From an uncultured Candidatus Bathyarchaeia archaeon (GTDB lineage: Archaea > Thermoproteota > Bathyarchaeia > Bathyarchaeales > Bathyarchaeaceae), in NCBI GenBank assembly GCA_964556565.1, contig CAZKWF010000002.1, positions 107,499 through 163,511 on the forward strand: a DNA stretch of 56,013 nucleotides. Direction: 5' to 3'. Each line of letters begins with the position of its first letter. Position 1 is the first letter of the stretch. Both the position numbers and the translations under genes were made by a program. The notes beneath the pieces are model-generated. The model was not told the origin of the DNA and did no database searches. It saw nothing but the letters and a program-made list of their open reading frames with translations. This document shows, piece after piece, positions 21,669-39,959 of the stretch.

Positions 21669-21839
21669 TGGCGCCGGGGAAGGGATTTGAACCCTTGAGG
21701 CTCAAAGAGCCACTGGATCTCGACTCTGCCCCTTCTCCTAAGCTTCTATGATAGGAAAAAGGGTGTCCAGCGCATTACCACTCTGCCACCCCATGCTGAG
21801 ACACAATATGTCTTGGCAACGGAGGACTAATACCCCGGC
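21669..21839 (-). tRNA. tRNA-Ser(CGA) with two intervening sequences, CCA encoded
   Basis: Spliced form is GCCGGGG TG GCAGAGTGGTAATGC G CTGGA-CT-CGA-GA-TCCAG, long variable arm GGCTC/GAGCC, AAGGG-TTCAAAT-CCCTT, CCCCGGC G CCA. Intron 21724-21764 (41 nt, position 32/33); insertion 21793-21836 (44 nt, acceptor stem). Confidence 0.9.
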
Positions 21840-21974
21840 CCGTGTCTTTCCCAAACCCTCAAAGCCACTCTACATCTAAAAGCATTTTGTTCCACGCATC
21901 AAGTTCCGACAAACCAAAACAACAAAACAATGCTCACAAAAAAATAGCCAGAAAGCAACTATAACAGAAGCCAT

Positions 21975-22050
21975 GACCCCCCTAGGTAGGGGGTCTAATA
22001 AGAGAGAATGAGAAACTGTAAAAAAATTATAGGGGGGGTCTAAAGAGAGA
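21975..22050. repeat. G-string direct repeat and hairpin upstream of tRNA-Ser
   Basis: TAGGGGGTCTAATAAGAGAGA (21987-22007) and TAGGGGGGGTCTAAAGAGAGA (22030-22050); GACCCCC/GGGGGTC stem at 21975-21995. Confidence 0.5.
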
Positions 22051-22081
22051 GACATACAAATAACGTAATAAAACATAAGCC

Positions 22082-23062
22082 TCAAACAGGCTTAGGCATC
22101 ACCAAATCAGCAATATCAACACTGTTATCATAAATCCGATTCATTAAAGAAGCCACAGCAAGAACATGCGTCGCAACATCAACAGACAAACCACCCATAG
22201 CAGCCTCAACCTCACCAAACACAGATAAAACATTCTCTCTTTCATTCCTAACAGACTCAGCCACCGAAACACTGCGAGAGAACACAGCCCTCAAAGCATT
22301 CTCATGCGCCTCATAAACCAACCCGTGAAAACGCAAAACAAACTGCAACAACTCCTTCGGAAGCTTCACACCCTTCAACTTAACCACCTTACCAGCAATC
22401 TGAACAGAACGATCACCAATCGACTCAACCAAACTAGCCATCAAACGATAATCCAAACAATCAATAGGAAACACACCTAACTTCTCACTCAAACCTGGAT
22501 TCTGAACAACCGTCCGCAAACTACGCACCAAAAGAAAATACAACCGATTAACCTCATTATCCCTCGCAACCACATTCTTAGCCAAATGCACATCACCCTC
22601 AACCAAAGCAGTCACAGCATCCCGATGCATACCAGACGCAATAGAATATTCACGACGAAGAACCTTCCCAGGCGGAAAAGTAGAAAGCTCCAAAAGACAC
22701 TGCATAACAATCTTAGAATAGTCCTCCTCAATAATTTCTAAGCCAACCAAACGAATCGACGCCTGCTTAACACGCTCACGATCAACAGAGCTTATCCTAT
22801 CCTTCGCCTCAACCCGAATAACGTCATACCCCAACAGATACTTCCCAACAATCTCACGATCAAGATACACAGAAGGCTTAATCACCGCCACCTGTGGAGC
22901 ACGCTCCACATCATACTTCGGATCAACACAAAGCCGCCCATCAGCCATCTCAGAAACCGCAACAACGGAACTACGCTGAAGCCCACTTCGCTCAGCCCAC
23001 TCTTTAGGCACACAAACAAAAAAAGTCCCACCACTTGTTTTCTGAACTCTCCGCAAATCCAT
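22082..23062 (-). CDS. phoU: Phosphate uptake regulator, AbrB-like N-domain plus PhoU repeats
   Basis: RRVQKTSGGTFFVCVPKEW, YLLGYDVI, RDNEVNRLYFL, VESIGDRSVQIA. Confidence 0.88.
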   Translation of the reverse strand: MDLRRVQKTSGGTFFVCVPKEWAERSGLQRSSVVAVSEMADGRLCVDPKYDVERAPQVAVIKPSVYLDREIVGKYLLGYDVIRVEAKDRISSVDRERVKQASIRLVGLEIIEEDYSKIVMQCLLELSTFPPGKVLRREYSIASGMHRDAVTALVEGDVHLAKNVVARDNEVNRLYFLLVRSLRTVVQNPGLSEKLGVFPIDCLDYRLMASLVESIGDRSVQIAGKVVKLKGVKLPKELLQFVLRFHGLVYEAHENALRAVFSRSVSVAESVRNERENVLSVFGEVEAAMGGLSVDVATHVLAVASLMNRIYDNSVDIADLVMPKPV

Positions 23063-23329: not shown

Positions 23330-23473
23330 TTGGCGCCACATGAAACTGACGCCGTGACTGCAACATCAACTGGACACCTTCACCTAAAAGGAAAAACAGA
23401 GCTAATAAGAGACAATAAAGAAGGCTACATCGTCGTCCCAATAAAGAGTGACTGGAGAGTGCTACAATTATGA
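23330..23473 (+). CDS. 47-aa hypothetical protein translationally coupled to PolD DP1
   Basis: GGGAGG upstream, TTG start, MAPHETDAVTATSTGHLHLKGKTELIRDNKEGYIVVPIKSDWRVLQL. Its TGA overlaps the DP1 ATG (ATGA). Confidence 0.65.
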   Translation: MAPHETDAVTATSTGHLHLKGKTELIRDNKEGYIVVPIKSDWRVLQL

Positions 23474-25017
23474 GCGACAGACTTCAAAGAGCCGTTTCCT
23501 TCACAATAGCCGCAGGATATCAATTAGATAAACAAGCCTTCGATTTTTTAAACACACTCTCCCAAACAGAAGACCCTGTTAAATTAATGGAAGAAGTGGT
23601 CAAAAAAATAAAAAATCTCCCTCAGAAAACTTTGTTCATACAACGAAGCTTTCTAGAAGAGATTGCGGAAAAAACTCTTCCAAAGGTGAAAGAAGAGAAG
23701 CCTAGTTTGCTTACACCTCTGTCGCCAATTCTAGAAGCCAAGAAGGGTTTTCACGCATTTGCAAAAGACATCGACGGAGACATAAAAGTAATAGAAGATC
23801 CAACAGATGAAATATGTGAAACCGGGTCCATTGAAGAATATCTAGAGTATTTCCAAGATCGCTTCCAAAGAACACAGAGGTTTCTAAGAAGAAGAATGGA
23901 CGTTAAAGATGCGACATCAATATCGGAGGCACTCAAATCTTCAGCTAACACAAAGGTGAAGATCATTGGCATGGTCACTGAAAAACGGGAACGCAAACAA
24001 AGGGTATTCTTAACCGTTGAAGACTTGGAAACCAGCGCCACTGTACTTGTATCCCCAAGCACAAGCCAAGAGGTCATAAAAAAGGCACAGATGTTACTAT
24101 TAGACCAAGTTGTTTGCATAAACGCCATCAAAGGAAGAAACGACTTGCTCATTGCAGAAGACATTGTTTGGCCTGACATGCCCAAAAGAAAACCCAACAA
24201 AGCCTCAATACCGGTCTACGCAGCACTCATATCAGACTTGCATATCGGAAGCAAAATGTTTATGCGAGAAGAATTTAGTCGGTTTGTGCTTTGGTTAAAT
24301 GGGAAATTTGGAAATGAAAGTTTGAAGAATCTGGCAAGCCATGTCAAATATGTGGTGGTCGCCGGCGATCTTGTAGATGGGATAGGGGTTTATCCGAGAC
24401 AGTTAGACGAACTGGCGGTAACAGACATCTATGAACAGTATGGAATGGTCTCGAAATTCATTGAACAAATCCCAGATTATATCGAATTGATAATAATACC
24501 TGGAAACCACGACGCGTCTCGGAAGGCATTACCTCAGCCCGCCATACCTAAAGATTACGCAGAGCCACTTCATGAATCTAGGAAAGTATATTCCCTAGGA
24601 AACCCAAGCACTGTGAGGCTTCACGAAGTCGAACTGCTTCTGTATCACGGACGTAGCCTAGATGATATTGTTGCATCCATTCCAAACGTAAGCTTTCAAA
24701 CTCCGGACAAAGCCATGAAATTTCTTCTACAAAGCAGACATTTAGCGCCCGTTTACGGAAAAAAAACGCCTATAGCACCAGAAAAAAAAGACTTCATGGT
24801 CATAGAAAGACCACCAGACATTTTCCACGCTGGACATGTGCATGTGATAAAGTATGACACTTATCGAGGAACACTTATCGTTAACTCGGGGACTTGGCAA
24901 AAGCAGACTGAATTCCAAAAGAAAATGGGGGTTACTCCTAACCCAGGAATCGTTCCAATCGTAAATCTTCAAACATTACAAGTTACACCCATCAATTTTA
25001 CAACATCTTATGCGTGA
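23470..25017 (+). CDS. polD1: DNA polymerase D small subunit DP1 (3'-5' exonuclease)
   Basis: YFQDRF, OB fold, ISDLHIGSK, AGDLVDGIGVYP, PGNHD, YHGRSLDD, FHAGHVH. Confidence 0.96.
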   Translation: MSDRLQRAVSFTIAAGYQLDKQAFDFLNTLSQTEDPVKLMEEVVKKIKNLPQKTLFIQRSFLEEIAEKTLPKVKEEKPSLLTPLSPILEAKKGFHAFAKDIDGDIKVIEDPTDEICETGSIEEYLEYFQDRFQRTQRFLRRRMDVKDATSISEALKSSANTKVKIIGMVTEKRERKQRVFLTVEDLETSATVLVSPSTSQEVIKKAQMLLLDQVVCINAIKGRNDLLIAEDIVWPDMPKRKPNKASIPVYAALISDLHIGSKMFMREEFSRFVLWLNGKFGNESLKNLASHVKYVVVAGDLVDGIGVYPRQLDELAVTDIYEQYGMVSKFIEQIPDYIELIIIPGNHDASRKALPQPAIPKDYAEPLHESRKVYSLGNPSTVRLHEVELLLYHGRSLDDIVASIPNVSFQTPDKAMKFLLQSRHLAPVYGKKTPIAPEKKDFMVIERPPDIFHAGHVHVIKYDTYRGTLIVNSGTWQKQTEFQKKMGVTPNPGIVPIVNLQTLQVTPINFTTSYA

Positions 25018-25174: not shown

Positions 25175-26422
25175 TTAATGCCTACTCGAAATCTCTGCCA
25201 AGTATTTAGGCGCATACTTGACCAGACGTTCAAGTCTATCATCCGTGGTGAATGACGCTCGAATAATACTACGTGGTATGCTCAGACGAATCTTTTTCGT
25301 ACGCCCGTACCGTCCCATGCTCACAACTCGTGCGTTCAACAACCCTATTACATCCAATTCATTCACTAAACTGCTCACCCGTCTTTGAGTTAACGGTGTA
25401 AGCCCTGACTGACTACAAAGCTCACAGTAAATTTCATAAATATCACCAGTCACCGCACAGCTAATTTTCGCCTTGCCCAACAGATAGACGCTACATAAAA
25501 CGAGTTTTGAGTGAAGTGGAAGGTTCTCCAAAGCTTCCGCAATCCGATCGTGTTCAATCCTCTTTTCCGCCCGCCGTATATGATCCTCTACAACAGCTTC
25601 AGAACCTTCGCGCTCAGCCAACTCACCGGCAACCCGAAGAAGATCCAAAGCTCGCCGTGCATCTCCATGCTCAGCAGCGGCCAACGCGGCACATAGACTC
25701 AGAGCGCCATCAAACAAAACGCCATTATGAAATGCCGGTTGGGCACGGTCTAGAAGGATGTCTCGAAGCTCAGCTGCGTCATATGGCCTAAATACAATCT
25801 CCTCCTCACTTAAAGAACTCAAAACTCTGGGATCAAGAAGCTCTTTGAATCTAAGATCGTTGGAGATTCCCACAATTGAGGCTTTGCTATAACGAAGAGT
25901 TTCGTTTATTCTAGTCAATTCGTAAAGCAGAACATCCCCCCGGGTTTTTATGAGGGCATCAATTTCATCAAGAACAACGATAAAAAGGATTTTACATGAG
26001 TCTAAGCCCGTTTTAAATCGGTCAAAAACTTCTCCCACAGCTAGGCCTGTAAATGGAACCTTCACCTCCAAAGTAGCACATAAACTTGAGAAAATCCTGT
26101 ACTCTGTACTCATTAGTCGACAGTTAATATAGCAGACCTTCACAGGTGCCCCAAGTTCACAAGCCTTATGACCAAGTCTGCTCAACACATATTTTATAAC
26201 CGCGGTTTTTCCTGTGCCTGTTTTTCCATAAACCAAGACGTTAGAGCACCGGAACCCCTTCAAAACAGGGGCACATATTTCACCAAGGTAACGGATCTGC
26301 TCCCTACGATGTGGGAGCGTGTCAGGGATATAGTCATGCCGCAACACTTCTCTGTCTTGAAATATACCGTTGCCTTTCAAAAAATGTTCAAATACCTTAT
26401 CTAGCACAGTAGTTTTACTCAT
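25175..26422 (-). CDS. cdc6: Orc1/Cdc6 replication initiator
   Basis: LRHDYIPDTLPHR, GKTGTGKT, VLDEID, GDARRALDLLR and a C-terminal wHTH (GRYGRTKKI). Confidence 0.97.
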   Translation of the reverse strand: MSKTTVLDKVFEHFLKGNGIFQDREVLRHDYIPDTLPHRREQIRYLGEICAPVLKGFRCSNVLVYGKTGTGKTAVIKYVLSRLGHKACELGAPVKVCYINCRLMSTEYRIFSSLCATLEVKVPFTGLAVGEVFDRFKTGLDSCKILFIVVLDEIDALIKTRGDVLLYELTRINETLRYSKASIVGISNDLRFKELLDPRVLSSLSEEEIVFRPYDAAELRDILLDRAQPAFHNGVLFDGALSLCAALAAAEHGDARRALDLLRVAGELAEREGSEAVVEDHIRRAEKRIEHDRIAEALENLPLHSKLVLCSVYLLGKAKISCAVTGDIYEIYCELCSQSGLTPLTQRRVSSLVNELDVIGLLNARVVSMGRYGRTKKIRLSIPRSIIRASFTTDDRLERLVKYAPKYLAEISSRH

Positions 26423-35657: not shown

Positions 35658-36434
35658 ATGATTGGGCGAGTGGAAAAGTACCTACTGAATAAGATTAAGA
35701 AAGACGGGGCTATTCACTTAACTCTCATTGACCCCGAAAAAGTGTCTCTCAAATCAGCCTCTCGCATAGCCCGTGAAGCAGAGTCCAGCAAGACGGCATC
35801 TATCATGATTGGCGGATCTACCATTGTTTCCACTTCCCGTTTAAATAATACTATAAAAGCAATAAAGAAGGCAGTTGGCATTCCAGTGATTCTTTTCCCT
35901 AATAACGTAACAGGTATCAGCAAACACGCCGATGCCATATGGTTTATGTCGCTTCTCAACTCCTTGGACCCATACTTTATCGTGGGTGCGCAAGTCTTGG
36001 GTGCTCCACTCGTCAGAAAGTTTGATTTGGAAGCCATTCCACTCGGTTACATAGTTGTTGGAGAAGGCGCCACAGTAGGTGTTATAGGACGAGCCAGTCC
36101 GATTCCATATGATAAGCCAGAACTTGCTGCTGCACATGCATTGGCGGCGCAGTATCTTGGCATGCGGTTTGTGTATTTGGAGGCGGGGTCTGGGGCTAAA
36201 CAACCTGTGCCAGATGAAATGATTAGGATAGTGAAGGATCTTGTTGGTGTTCCTTTGATTGTTGGTGGGGGCCTGAGAAGTGGTGGGCAGGTGAAGGAGA
36301 AGGTGAAGGCTGGGGCTGATATAATTGTCACTGGTAATGTTGTGGAAGAGTTTGAAGCTAAAGATAAGGTTGAAGAGTTGGTGAAACAGGTGAAATGGTA
36401 TCGAAGGGCCTTGAAGCGGCCTAAACGTAGATGA
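35658..36434 (+). CDS. Geranylgeranylglyceryl phosphate synthase (group II)
   Basis: HLTLIDPEK, ILFP, SLLNS, YLEAGSGA, VGGGLR. Confidence 0.93.
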   Translation: MIGRVEKYLLNKIKKDGAIHLTLIDPEKVSLKSASRIAREAESSKTASIMIGGSTIVSTSRLNNTIKAIKKAVGIPVILFPNNVTGISKHADAIWFMSLLNSLDPYFIVGAQVLGAPLVRKFDLEAIPLGYIVVGEGATVGVIGRASPIPYDKPELAAAHALAAQYLGMRFVYLEAGSGAKQPVPDEMIRIVKDLVGVPLIVGGGLRSGGQVKEKVKAGADIIVTGNVVEEFEAKDKVEELVKQVKWYRRALKRPKRR

Positions 36435-36545: not shown

Positions 36546-39500
36546 TTGAACGTCGCGATGAGCAAGGAACACCAGCAATATGTGTCTACATTAGAGAGCA
36601 AGCTCACGGGTATATATGAAATTGCGGAGAAGGCAAGAGAAAAAGGGTTTGATCCCTCTCTTCACTCTGAGCCTAAAGTGGCTAAAGACTTAGCCGAGCT
36701 TGTGGAGGGTCTGGTTGGTCCACAAGGTGTTGCTGAAAGCATCCGAAACTTAAGCAAGAAATTGCCACGAGAAGAGCTTGCGTTCAAAATTGCTGAAGAG
36801 ATTGTATACGGAAAATTCGAGCACATGAGTGCAAGTGAAGCCGCTGAGCAGGCGATAAGAACTGCCCTTGCCATACTGACCGAGGGTATCACCGCCGCGC
36901 CTCTGCAAGGCGTAGCACAAGTAGCCGTGAAGTATAACTCTGACCGAACGAGGTATTTGGCAATTTATTATGCTGGTCCTATACGTTCTGCAGGTGGTAC
37001 GGAACAGGCCTTAAGCTTGCTGGTAGGAGATTTTGTTCGTCGTTTGCTGGGGCTGGACCGTTATAAGCCGACTGAAGATGAGATTGGGCGTTTCATCGAA
37101 GAAATGCGACTATTTGAACGATCAGTAAGTCGGTTTCAATATCATGTGTCGGATGAAGAATTGAGAAGAGCACTTCAATTTCTCCCCGTGGAAGTTACTG
37201 GGCTGGAATCTGATCCCGTTGAGGTTTCTGCCTACCGTGATCTTCCTCGAATCGAGACAAACCGGGTACGAGGTGGTGCACTCCGTGTTGTAAATGATGG
37301 AGTTGTGGGGCGTTCTGCAAAGGTGTGGACGATTGTGGAAAAACTGGGGATTGAGGGTTGGGACTGGTTGAAGAGTGTTCGAGAGATCGAGCGGAAGAAG
37401 AATGCTGGTTTTATGGAGGATATTATTGCGGGGCGTCCCATCTTTTCATTTCCTTCAAGGCGTGGAGGTTTCAGACTTCGCTATGGAAGATCTAGAAACA
37501 CCGGTTTAGCTGCAGTGGGGGTCCATCCGGCAACCATGATGGTTCTTCAGAACTTTCTTGCAGCAGGCACTCAAGTACGCATTGAAGGCCCAGGGAAAGC
37601 TGGGGTTGTTCTTCCGGTAGATACGATAGAGCCTCCAATTGTACGATTGAAGGATGGATCTGTTGTTCGTGCTTCACTTGAAAACTTTGCACAAATAAAA
37701 AATGTGGTTGACAAGATCCTATTTTTAGGCGACATCCTCATCGGGTTTGGCGACTTTCTGTATACCAACAAACCTCTTCTCCCGTCAGGGGTCACCGAAG
37801 AGTGGTGGTGTCAGGAGCTTCAAGCGATCATTAAACAGAAATTGGGTGGAGATCTAAAGGAGGCTGCGACGACGGCGAAAATTTCTACAGATCGCCTTGA
37901 AGGATTTCTCGTAGACCCTTTTAGAAACAAGCCAACTGCCGAAGAAGCAGTATCACTGTCCCTAGCGTTCGGAGTTCCTCTTCATCCATTTTTCACGTTC
38001 TTCTGGGCGTACATTTCTTCTGATGAACTCCGAATGTTACGGAAGTGGCTCTTAAACGCTCGAAGAGAGGTTGAGAACGAAACTGTTGGTGAAATATCTG
38101 GCGAGATGAACGAATCAGTAAAGCAGCTGCTTGAAAAGATATGTATTCCCCATAAAGTTGTGGAAGGCAACATTAGGATAGAAGGGGATGAAGCTTATGT
38201 CTTTGCATTTTGTCTCGGGTTAAACGATTCCAAAGCGAGAATAGCTAGTGCGAAGTCTGTTCTTGAAAACATTGGTAAACTCTGTGGTGTTAGTGTCAGA
38301 GATAAAGCTCCGACGTTTGTGGGTGCGAGAATGGGGCGTCCGGAGAAGGCGAAGAGGCGAGAGATGAGGCCTCTGGTTCATGTGCTTTTCCCTGTTGGGC
38401 TTGCTGGTGGTCCTCGGCGAAACATTGTGAAGGCGTTAAACAGAGTTATGATTGATGTTGAGCTTGTGAGGCGTCGATGTCCTGATTGTCGAACGGAAAC
38501 TCATAGAATAAAGTGTGCTAAATGTGGGGCAGAGACGGTTTTGGTGAAGTGTTGTCCTCGGTGTGGCAAGGTTCTGAAACAGGATGTTTGTCCGATCTGT
38601 AAAGTTTCAACAAGGAGCTACAGTAAACAAGCAATTAACTTGAGGGAGTTAATGAATGAGGCGAGTGAAAGGCTGAACCTTCCTGTTCCAGAACTTGTGA
38701 AAGGCGTAAAAGGTTTAATAAACGAAACAAAGATGGTTGAGACGCTTGAAAAAGGGATTTTGCGAGCCAAATATGACCTTTCTGTTTATAAGGATGGAAC
38801 AATTCGGTTCGACGCTACAAACGCGCCATTAACGCATTTTAAGCCGAAAGAAATCGGTGTCTCTGTTGAAAGGCTTCAGGAAATGGGTTATCTTCTTGAC
38901 TGCTACGGGAATTCATTAACCGACCCTGATCAGATATGCGAGCTTAAAGTTCAAGACATTGTTATTCCAGTGGAAAATGCTGAATACTTTGTTCGTGTGA
39001 CCAATTTCTTAGACGATCTTCTTGAGAAGGTGTATGAGCTTCCTCCATACTACAACGTTAAACGTGTTGACGATTTAGTTGGACATTTAGTCGTAGGCTT
39101 GGCACCGCACACCTCAGCGGGTATTCTCGGCAGAATAATCGGGTTCACAAACCATAATGTTTGTTATGCTCATGTCCTTTGGCATTCAGCAAAGCGTCGG
39201 GACTGCGACGGCGATGAGGACGCTTTGATGCTGGCTTTGGATACTATCTTAAACTTTTCTAAGGCTTACCTGCCAGCTCAGATAGGTGGAATAATGGATG
39301 CGCCACTTTTCATTATTCCCCTGGTGAACCCTGCGGAAGTACAACGGCAGGCTCATGAGGTGGATGTTGCTGGGACGTATCCGCTGGTGTTTTATGAGAA
39401 GACTTGGCAGAGCGTCATGCCCCGTAAAATTGGCGAACTCATAGATCTAGTTGAGTATCGATTAAACAGTGAAGCGCAGTTTCAAGGTTTCAACTATACG

Positions 39501-39959
39501 ATTCCTGTTTCGGATATTAACTTGGGTAATCGTGAGAGCATTTACAAGAGGTTGGGGCGAATGCTTGACAAGTTGAGCAGTCAACTTACGTTAGCGGAGA
39601 AGATTGAGGCTGTAGATGCTGAGACCGTGGCGAGGAAGGTTTTGACCACGCATTTCATGCGAGATATCATGGGCAATTTGCGGGCGTTTACCACCCAGAG
39701 CTTTCGATGTAAAAAATGTAACAAACGTTTCAGACGATTACCTCTTCGCGGTAGGTGTTCCGTGTGTGGAGGCGAGGTAGCCTTGACAGTTCATCGTGGT
39801 GGAATCGAAAAGTACTTGGAAGCGGCGCGTCAGCTTGTGAAGAAGTATGGGTTATCCGATTATTATGCTCAGCGACTTACGTTGGTGGAGGAGGAGATTA
39901 GGTCTTTGTTTGAAGGTGATAAGCCTAAGCAGGTAAGCCTCTCTGACTTTATAGCCTGA
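36546..39959 (+). CDS. polD2: DNA polymerase D large subunit DP2
   Basis: GITAAPLQG, GPIRSAGGT, GFRLRYGR, GARMGRPEKA, KRRDCDGDED catalytic Asp pair and C-terminal zinc fingers. No intein. Confidence 0.97.
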   Translation: MNVAMSKEHQQYVSTLESKLTGIYEIAEKAREKGFDPSLHSEPKVAKDLAELVEGLVGPQGVAESIRNLSKKLPREELAFKIAEEIVYGKFEHMSASEAAEQAIRTALAILTEGITAAPLQGVAQVAVKYNSDRTRYLAIYYAGPIRSAGGTEQALSLLVGDFVRRLLGLDRYKPTEDEIGRFIEEMRLFERSVSRFQYHVSDEELRRALQFLPVEVTGLESDPVEVSAYRDLPRIETNRVRGGALRVVNDGVVGRSAKVWTIVEKLGIEGWDWLKSVREIERKKNAGFMEDIIAGRPIFSFPSRRGGFRLRYGRSRNTGLAAVGVHPATMMVLQNFLAAGTQVRIEGPGKAGVVLPVDTIEPPIVRLKDGSVVRASLENFAQIKNVVDKILFLGDILIGFGDFLYTNKPLLPSGVTEEWWCQELQAIIKQKLGGDLKEAATTAKISTDRLEGFLVDPFRNKPTAEEAVSLSLAFGVPLHPFFTFFWAYISSDELRMLRKWLLNARREVENETVGEISGEMNESVKQLLEKICIPHKVVEGNIRIEGDEAYVFAFCLGLNDSKARIASAKSVLENIGKLCGVSVRDKAPTFVGARMGRPEKAKRREMRPLVHVLFPVGLAGGPRRNIVKALNRVMIDVELVRRRCPDCRTETHRIKCAKCGAETVLVKCCPRCGKVLKQDVCPICKVSTRSYSKQAINLRELMNEASERLNLPVPELVKGVKGLINETKMVETLEKGILRAKYDLSVYKDGTIRFDATNAPLTHFKPKEIGVSVERLQEMGYLLDCYGNSLTDPDQICELKVQDIVIPVENAEYFVRVTNFLDDLLEKVYELPPYYNVKRVDDLVGHLVVGLAPHTSAGILGRIIGFTNHNVCYAHVLWHSAKRRDCDGDEDALMLALDTILNFSKAYLPAQIGGIMDAPLFIIPLVNPAEVQRQAHEVDVAGTYPLVFYEKTWQSVMPRKIGELIDLVEYRLNSEAQFQGFNYTIPVSDINLGNRESIYKRLGRMLDKLSSQLTLAEKIEAVDAETVARKVLTTHFMRDIMGNLRAFTTQSFRCKKCNKRFRRLPLRGRCSVCGGEVALTVHRGGIEKYLEAARQLVKKYGLSDYYAQRLTLVEEEIRSLFEGDKPKQVSLSDFIA

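Follow-up and report, generated by a model that had tools for sequence, protein, structure and literature searches.

We report that a 56,013-nt stretch of DNA from an uncultured Candidatus Bathyarchaeia archaeon (contig CAZKWF010000002.1; the whole 56-kb stretch is hereafter called the window) probably carries a functional, promoter-driven Bathyarchaeota tRNA-Ser(CGA) gene with two introns of the bulge–helix–bulge (BHB) type, one of them a 22-nt intron at position 3/4 of the tRNA. Judging from sequence comparison, we put the probability of this reading at about 0.85. The locus occupies 171 nt of the minus strand, from 21839 down to 21669, and an initial annotation had described its acceptor stem as interrupted by a 44-nt insertion with no canonical BHB. 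What had appeared to be an unexplained 44-base insert is a normal 22-nt archaeal BHB intron at the rare 3/4 position, which lies behind a conserved copy of the acceptor strand in the leader.

Gene layout and the intron at position 3/4

Read along the minus strand, the locus runs GCCGGGG-UAUUAGUCCUCC-GUU-GCC, followed by the 22-nt AAGACAUAUUGUGUCUCAGCAU, then GGGGUGGCAGAGUGGUAAUGCGCUGGAC, a 41-nt insert, and finally UCGAGAUCCAG through to CCCCGGC-G-CCA (position n of the precursor tRNA, or pre-tRNA, corresponds to window coordinate 21840 − n). The contiguous tRNA body starts ...CAU-GGGGUGGCAG, and the sequence GCCGGGGT is found 44 nt upstream of this body, at 21839-21832, as the sole occurrence on either strand of the window (0.47 expected), with GGGGT present at both ends of the 44-nt stretch. 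When the 44 nt and the 41-nt insert were deleted in silico, ARAGORN drew a flawless cloverleaf for the resulting 86-nt tRNA-Ser(CGA), with the class II features of a 7-bp acceptor stem, a long variable arm, a 3-bp D stem, G73, and the anticodon CGA, and with CCA encoded after G73. Two elements of the initial annotation, namely the identity of the gene and the interruption of the 5′ strand of its acceptor stem, are borne out. The gene is nonetheless missed by standard gene finders: default ARAGORN and Rfam at the gathering score reported no tRNA anywhere in the window, and a window-wide Rfam search at permissive E-values yielded nothing beyond a T-arm fragment and a sub-threshold sR52 match. 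With introns allowed, ARAGORN called only the body at 21669-21796 with a mismatched acceptor stem.

The key to the apparent interruption is a second GCC at 21817-21815, inside the supposed insert and within the invariant GTTGCCAAG, which can serve as tRNA positions 1-3. Taking this GCC as exon 1, a complete hBHBh′ motif (a central helix H, two 3-nt bulges, and the outer helices h and h′) forms around the 22-nt AAGACAUAUUGUGUCUCAGCAU (21793-21814, minus strand; A26-U47 of the pre-tRNA) in the window and in every orthologue. The 5′ strand of H, GUUG (21817-21820), consists of leader positions −3 to −1 plus G1 and is invariant in all orthologues; in the window it pairs with CAGC (21798-21795) over 4 bp (G20-C45, U21-G44, U22-A43, and G23-C42). 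H is flanked by a 5′ bulge CC|A (C24 C25 | A26) and a 3′ bulge AU|G (A46 U47 | G48; 21794-21792). On the intron side, h′ is formed by AGACA/UGUCU, i.e., A27-GACA with UGUC-U41 (21813-21809 with 21803-21799; 5-6 bp, of which 5 are Watson–Crick), and on the exon side h is formed by the 3 bp of UCC/GGG (C19-G49, C18-G50, and U17-G51). The canonical definition of hBHBh′ asks for at least two Watson–Crick pairs in each outer helix (PMC7714728), and both h and h′ have at least that many in the window, which places the motif within this definition. The predicted cuts, two nucleotides 3′ of H in each 3-nt bulge, join GCC to GGGGU, giving GCCGGGGU and restoring the 7-bp acceptor stem. The junction is thus set by the cut sites after C3, and registers from 4/5 onward have no motif. 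At the sequence level, the gene has all the features that define BHB introns and 3/4 introns.

With this junction, the gene comprises three exons on the minus strand: GCC (21815-21817, tRNA positions 1-3); GGGGUGGCAGAGUGGUAAUGCGCUGGAC (21765-21792, positions 4-32), of which G5-G7 (21791-21789) form the 3′ strand of h; and an exon starting UCGAGAUCCAG (21669-21723, positions 33-76) that holds the CGA anticodon, the long variable arm, the T arm, CCCCGGC, G73, and CCA. A TATA-like box, TTTTAGA (21875-21881, minus strand), is the likely tRNA promoter, and the same heptamer or a near variant is comparably placed in most orthologues for which upstream sequence was available. The box at 21881-21875 sits 35 nt upstream of the upstream GCCGGGG copy in the window; across orthologues, the distance is 26-38 nt to the upstream copy and 45-57 nt to the true G1.

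Conservation and covariation across orthologues

We collected 20 distinct versions of the locus through synteny, a genome pattern scan, and a metagenome scan. Synteny identified the same tRNA locus in CP070709 (L001; PhoU 94% identical) and CP070754 (L002; PhoU 76%), the pattern scan of species-representative genomes yielded five Bathyarchaeota loci, and the metagenome scan, for which the pattern was deliberately written without the upstream GCCGGGG, added 14 further loci. Among remoter relatives compared by synteny, the tRNA is not beside PhoU in L003 or L006-L010, and in L005 a tRNA-Ser(CGA) is found nearby that has an anticodon-loop intron only and an uninterrupted 5′ end.

The hBHBh′ is present at the same 3/4 site in all 20 distinct orthologues, which derive from Bathyarchaeota bins and metagenomes. 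Within the former insert, the block GUUGCCAAG is invariant, the hairpin that follows it changes in sequence and keeps its pairing, and the bases directly before the downstream GGGG read C-R-R-Y-A-N across orthologues. Contiguous h pairing extends over 2-6 bp in 19/20 orthologues, L018 being mismatched at the first h pair, and h′ spans 2-7 bp. To quantify this pairing, we used an alignment of 19 sequences (A1) with controls in which the 3′ partners were slid by 1-3 columns: 97.8% of the pair cells held standard pairs, compared to 37-52% in the slid controls. The h pairs U17-G51, C18-G50, and C19-G49 were paired in 96.5% of cases across the alignment. H was paired at 100%, and three of its four pairs varied on one side with the pairing preserved (G-C/G-U, U-G/U-A), such that the invariant GUUG faces CAGC, CAAU, CGAU, or CAAC. 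Two h′ pairs changed on both sides, and nine cells carried two-sided changes, the h′ variants including AGACA/UGUCU, AGGC/GCCU, AGGCAU/AUGCUU, AGGCGUC/GACGCCU, and AGUCC/GGGCU. None of 500 column shuffles matched the observed covariation score, a count that is not a probability because the sequences are related. The exon sequences differ little or not at all and yield a perfect cloverleaf in every case, across lineages with PhoU only 76% identical and with diverged introns and leaders.

Two other potential pairings were considered and set aside. RNAfold paired UUGCCA with UGGCAG of exon 2 in L002; L011, L024, and L027 have UGACAG in exon 2 yet keep UUGCCA. A pairing of leader AGAC with intron GUCU occurs in some lineages and is not conserved. 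Separately, the orthologues differ at the 3′ end of the gene: L026 (CCCCGGCGTTCA) and L005 (CCCCGGCGCTAC) have no encoded CCA after G73, which is present in the window and in most orthologues, so that an encoded CCA is not fixed within the group.

These data also bear on the earlier view of the locus, in which the upstream GCCGGGG(T) would be exon 1, and a 44-nt insert without BHB would be removed by relaxed splicing, bypassed by a Thg1-like 3′-5′ repair, or kept as an extra arm. The upstream 8-mer does match the acceptor strand perfectly and is unique in the window, the copy is found in all orthologues at the promoter distance expected for a tRNA 5′ end, and minimum-free-energy folds show it base-paired to the 3′ strand. 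Yet when H, h, and h′ of a 44-nt intron were scored in the 20 orthologues for registers 3/4 to 7/8, a BHB never formed: a 4-bp H with outer helices occurred in no register and in 0/20 orthologues, the best case reaching three of four pairs and no outer helices. The initial finding that a 4-bp central helix is not attained in any 44-nt register therefore holds in the window and in the 19 other orthologues, but it was obtained with the wrong exon 1, since the BHB emerges once GCC at 21817-21815 takes that place. As for register 8/9, different orthologues have T, C, or A directly behind the upstream copy; this base hence cannot supply U8, which must then come from the downstream copy; of the junction ambiguity from 3/4 to 8/9 once attributed to the GGGGT repeat, the repeat and the 3/4 junction remain and the 8/9 end falls away. 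A Thg1-type repair is unneeded, since the strand is encoded in full by GCC of exon 1 and GGGG of exon 2, which together are fully complementary to CCCCGGC; this leaves no truncated or mismatched 5′ strand as a repair substrate, and no Thg1-like gene occurs within the window. Relaxed non-BHB splicing and a retained extra arm are equally superfluous where GCC and GGGG exons flank a standard intron. Given also that a 44-nt insert leaves the invariant GUUGCCAAG without explanation, and that the 22-nt intron has a BHB that is complete and covaries, we regard this scenario as highly improbable.

The remaining elements of the initial annotation can be reread in the same light. Computational detection of a standard BHB had been named there as the outcome that would count against its view, and the covarying hBHBh′ at the 22-nt intron, with exon 1 at 21817-21815, is such a motif. 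The hairpins noticed in the insert exist, although not as a separate fold of their own: AGACA/UGUCU is h′, CUCC with GGGG is h, and the third pairing proposed, UGC with GCA, competes with helix H (GUUG/CAGC) as an alternative register. The spliced intron measures 22 nt rather than 44, and the distance of about 44 nt is the one that separates an ancestral-looking 5′ end from the body. The rarity ascribed to the 3/4 position was appropriate.

The second intron and intron turnover

The 41-nt insert (21724-21764, minus strand) corresponds to a second intron at the non-canonical position 32/33, between C32 and U33, which ARAGORN also calls as an intron. Its BHB is slightly relaxed: H is CUGG/GCAG, in which C27, U28, and G29 form three Watson–Crick pairs and G30 sits in a G.G mismatch beside the 5′ bulge. 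The bulges are AC|A and AG|U, h consists of G26-C34 and C25-G35, and h′ has 9-10 bp. The same geometry is repeated in 16 orthologues; the mismatch is G.A in some orthologues, and L018 has a full 4-bp H. The relaxed H implies an endonuclease that tolerates relaxed motifs, and PMC5829648 describes broad-specificity endonucleases of the (alpha-beta)2 or epsilon2 type where non-canonical introns occur.

Intron content is variable within the group. L023 has the 3/4 intron only and none at 32/33, and L015 (L015/L021 loci) combines the 3/4 intron with a second one that, rather than interrupting 32/33, sits in the anticodon loop at the canonical position or close to it. Since L015, L023, and L005 differ in this way, sequence comparison indicates that intron content turns over, with recent gain and loss within Bathyarchaeota. 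A further irregularity was seen in L027 (contig Ga0209427_10209617), where the T loop past GGGGTTCAAA is broken by an unrelated AGGATGAATAGTAAAACC... that continues to the end of the extracted sequence, whereas its close relative L024 has GGGGTTCAAATCCTC there; the interruption may reflect either a third intron, located in the T loop, or an assembly break.

Proposed processing pathway

What the analysis shows directly is a BHB motif that is conserved and covaries, together with a cloverleaf that is restored by splicing in silico; which enzymes act, in what order, and what the leader copy does are points that we infer. Given the usual spacing between archaeal TATA boxes and transcript starts, transcription would begin between a few and roughly 12 nucleotides ahead of 21839, yielding a leader of ~25-35 nt that includes the upstream copy. 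The leader UCC-GUU, G1, intron 1, and G5-G7 of exon 2 would then fold into the hBHBh′, the splicing endonuclease would open the two bulges at CC|A and AU|G, leaving GCC and GGGGU to be sealed together by an RNA ligase. The 41-nt intron at 32/33 would be excised likewise, from its slightly relaxed BHB. RNase P would subsequently cut 5′ of G1 (21817), so that the whole leader including the upstream copy would be lost and the mature 5′ end would be 5′-GCCGGGGUGGCAG, derived from 21817. Splicing of intron 1 would have to precede the RNase P cut, because H and h are built partly of leader bases (UCC-GUU). These steps follow established archaeal tRNA processing (PMC4090602, PMC7714728).

The pathway treats the upstream copy as part of the removed 5′ leader. 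A two-step, nested splicing would reach the mature tRNA differently: after removal of the 22-nt intron, the two GCCGGGG copies would form a second BHB, from which a second 22-nt piece would be removed, and the 5′ strand would come from the upstream copy. By hand analysis, the self-complementary CCGG in both copies does give a perfect 4-bp helix with GG|U on both strands, and archaeal nested introns with sequential removal are known (PMC8450103). This second motif has no outer helix, however, with A-G and U-U at the h′ positions and G-G at the h positions in the window and in L002, and the linker of 6-13 nt shows no conserved pairing. Leader removal by RNase P yields the same product more simply, and nested splicing appears scarcely credible for this gene.

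The upstream copy of the acceptor strand

The upstream copy of the acceptor 5′ strand, GCCGGGG (21833-21839, minus strand), lies in the 5′ leader and is separated from GUU-GCC by the variable linker UAUUAGUCCUCC (21821-21832), whose last three nucleotides, UCC (21823-21821), provide the 5′ strand of h. Across orthologues this linker is 6-13 nt long and, except for the pyrimidines beside GUUG, cannot be aligned between lineages. The copy is nevertheless present in 20/20 orthologues, including the 14 loci that were found without requiring it, with its G1 located 16-23 nt before the true G1. Over nine representatives, its mean pairwise identity is 0.94, compared to 0.33 for the 7 nt before it and 0.29 for the 6 nt after it. 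When the whole precursor is folded to minimum free energy, the copy pairs with CCCCGGC in six of seven lineages. Two variants were observed: L028 has GCUGGGG, which can still form a wobble with the 3′ acceptor strand, and L023 has GCCGGGA, in which a preceding GC extends complementarity to G73 and C74.

In L005, which has no 3/4 intron, the true G1 is found 29 nt after the TATA box, within the 26-38 nt that separate the box from the upstream copy in intron-bearing genes. Because the copy occupies the 5′-end place of an orthologue lacking the 3/4 intron, it is probably the ancestral 5′ end of the gene. The linker, the new GCC, and the intron would have been inserted behind this end, leaving a plausible footprint of intron acquisition.

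Whether the copy also serves a function is a separate question. Its strict conservation suggests a placeholder pairing in the precursor: the copy would hold the 3′ acceptor strand, CCCCGGC, for as long as the BHB keeps the true 5′ strand occupied, and the rebuilt true strand would displace it after splicing. Such a functional placeholder may preserve a tRNA-like fold, protect the 3′ end, and spare G4-G7 from competition, a proposal that we put forward tentatively. A partition-function test was carried out in seven lineages at 37 and 60 °C, comparing the probability of BHB formation, P(BHB), for the wild type, a mutated copy, and a truncated leader.

Several observations weigh against the interpretation developed here, for the intron as well as for the copy. 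H in the window includes one G-U wobble, and nearest-neighbour thermodynamics gives the exact BHB a very low equilibrium probability of 1e-7 to 1e-2, which is usual for two 3-nt bulges but does not count in its favour. In the partition-function test, P(BHB) was tiny, and the upstream copy had no consistent direction of effect on BHB formation. The 3′ acceptor strand is invariant, hence pairing of the copy is not amenable to a covariation test, and among the 11 closest sequences the invariance of the copy (0/7 vs 6/15 variable sites, p = 0.12) is not significant alone. Genes for EndA, RtcB, Thg1, or RNase P proteins were not found by Pfam among the 56 open reading frames (ORFs) of the window. 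Finally, metatranscriptomes X22, X23, X32, and X33 offered assembled contigs only, in which the locus appeared in unspliced form and no joints were seen at the tRNA introns. In two metatranscriptomes, contigs extended over the unspliced locus at word depths of 138 and 624, the PhoU region being as deep or deeper, and these contigs are compatible with DNA or with read-through from the equally deep neighbour gene and speak neither for nor against splicing.

One could accept the intron and see in the upstream GCCGGGG a neutral relic of the ancestral 5′ end, with no role in the precursor. Its promoter distance, equal to that of G1 in L005, the lack of a consistent BHB benefit in thermodynamic modelling, and the non-significant conservation within the closest group when taken alone all fit such a relic. 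Against this, the 7-mer has kept 0.94 identity over about seven deep lineages in which the flanks are near random (~0.3) and the linker has changed in length, and the variants point in the same direction, with a wobble kept in L028 and a GC that extends the pairing to G73 and C74 in L023. A purely neutral copy seems to us less likely than not.

A further alternative is that the locus is a decaying or unexpressed pseudo-tRNA and its repeats duplication debris. The failure of standard gene finders and the absence of spliced RNA in the metatranscriptome contigs, which are assembled data only, could be read in this way. Decay is at odds with near-identical exons and a perfect cloverleaf across lineages that have diverged in PhoU, introns, and leaders, with the pair-preserving and compensatory changes in the BHB, and with the conserved promoter; moreover, this is the sole tRNA-Ser(CGA) seen at the syntenic place. 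We consider a pseudo-tRNA very doubtful, and favour a functional gene with two introns.

Genomic context and host

The neighbours of the tRNA gene are genes for a PhoU-family protein (22082-23062, minus strand), the PolD small subunit DP1 (23470-25017), and Orc1/Cdc6 (25175-26422). A Pfam scan of all 56 window ORFs depicts an ordinary archaeal chromosome segment, which includes PolD DP2, aIF5A, Pus10, SRP54, KsgA, ribosomal proteins L10e and L21e, and pyruvate:ferredoxin oxidoreductase. The nearest PhoU homologues (92-98% identical), as well as many remoter ones, belong to ‘Candidatus Bathyarchaeota archaeon’ genome bins. Nothing in these data places the host in the order Thermoproteales: the neighbour proteins and all orthologous loci come from Bathyarchaeota bins, and both PolD DP1 and DP2 are encoded in the window. 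A search for other tRNA genes in ~200 kb of the orthologous loci gave no match with a pattern whose T arm was over-strict.

Beyond the tRNA gene, the order Orc1/Cdc6, PolD small subunit, PhoU is kept across Bathyarchaeota loci L001-L010, and in the window the PolD large subunit DP2 (36546-39959) is located 11 kb away. Just upstream of the DP2 gene, on the plus strand at 36345-36392, lies the sub-threshold Rfam match to the archaeal C/D-box small RNA sR52 (23.6 bits vs a gathering score of 50, E = 0.96), which overlaps the 3′ end of a PcrB-family ORF (35658-36434).

Between the PhoU stop and the tRNA promoter, positions 21975-22052 hold a direct repeat, GGGGGTCTAA(T)AAGAGAGA, present twice 45 nt apart, along with the inverted GACCCCCC/GGGGGGTC; similar palindromes of C and G runs follow PhoU in L001 and L003. 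In metatranscriptome contigs, this spot reached depths of up to about 10,000 and was joined to several unlike flanks, which suggests a dispersed, transcribed repeat element. It is located ~3 kb from orc1/cdc6, and may have an origin-related or terminator role.

Significance and comparison with known systems

The result removes an apparent exception, as the acceptor-stem insert obeys the ordinary archaeal BHB rule and calls for no new splicing or repair chemistry. It also places a 3/4 intron in Bathyarchaeota, a widespread sediment lineage. The literature examined reports such introns only from certain Thermoproteales, and our literature search found no publication on tRNA introns in Bathyarchaeota. 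In practical terms, there is an annotation gap: pipelines that rely on default ARAGORN and Rfam could score tRNA-Ser(CGA) as missing in Bathyarchaeota bins. For comparison, tRNAscan-SE 2.0 lengthens its candidates by 60 nt expressly so that introns close to the ends are not missed (PMC8450103). The spare strand in the leader raises the question of how a precursor folds and is protected while its own 5′ acceptor strand sits in a splicing motif. If true, the placeholder would represent an adaptation not described before, through which introns in the acceptor stem become tolerable, and could be a general signature of 3/4-intron tRNA genes. In the literature examined, which did not extend to Sugahara et al. 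2008, we found no description of a leader copy of the acceptor strand at tRNA intron genes.

Several known systems resemble this gene in part. Split and permuted tRNAs (Nanoarchaeum, Caldivirga, Cyanidioschyzon) also use sequences outside the mature tRNA to build a BHB that is cut by the endonuclease. Unlike these, the present gene has three colinear exons within 171 nt, downstream of one TATA-like box, in one unit of ~200 nt, and needs neither trans-splicing nor a circular intermediate. Thg1-like 3′-5′ repair likewise concerns the first nucleotides of the acceptor stem, but here the complete 5′ strand (GCC + GGGG) is genome-encoded. From Crenarchaeota and Thaumarchaeota, BHB introns at non-canonical positions and tRNA genes with several introns are well known (PMC4090602), and the lineage-specific presence and absence of introns seen here is reminiscent of these genes (Fujishima et al. 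2010, as cited in PMC4090602). In contrast to the intron gain and transposition known from these groups, the two introns of this gene show no sign of kinship with each other or with introns of other tRNA genes in a comparison that covered one tRNA gene per locus.

The closest counterparts are the 3/4 introns of certain Thermoproteales (Sugahara et al. 2008, as cited in PMC4090602), a position that the review PMC4090602 calls ‘an extreme case’. As in these, the motif described here has a 4-bp H, two 3-nt bulges, and two outer helices, the 5′ leader supplies half of H and of h, and a second non-canonical intron is found in the same gene. It differs in its Bathyarchaeota host (class Bathyarchaeia) and in the conserved 7-nt copy of the acceptor strand 16-23 nt upstream of the true G1. 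Overall, the 3/4 intron is of a known kind, found here outside Thermoproteales, and the only potentially new element is the conserved pseudo-acceptor strand that the leader carries.

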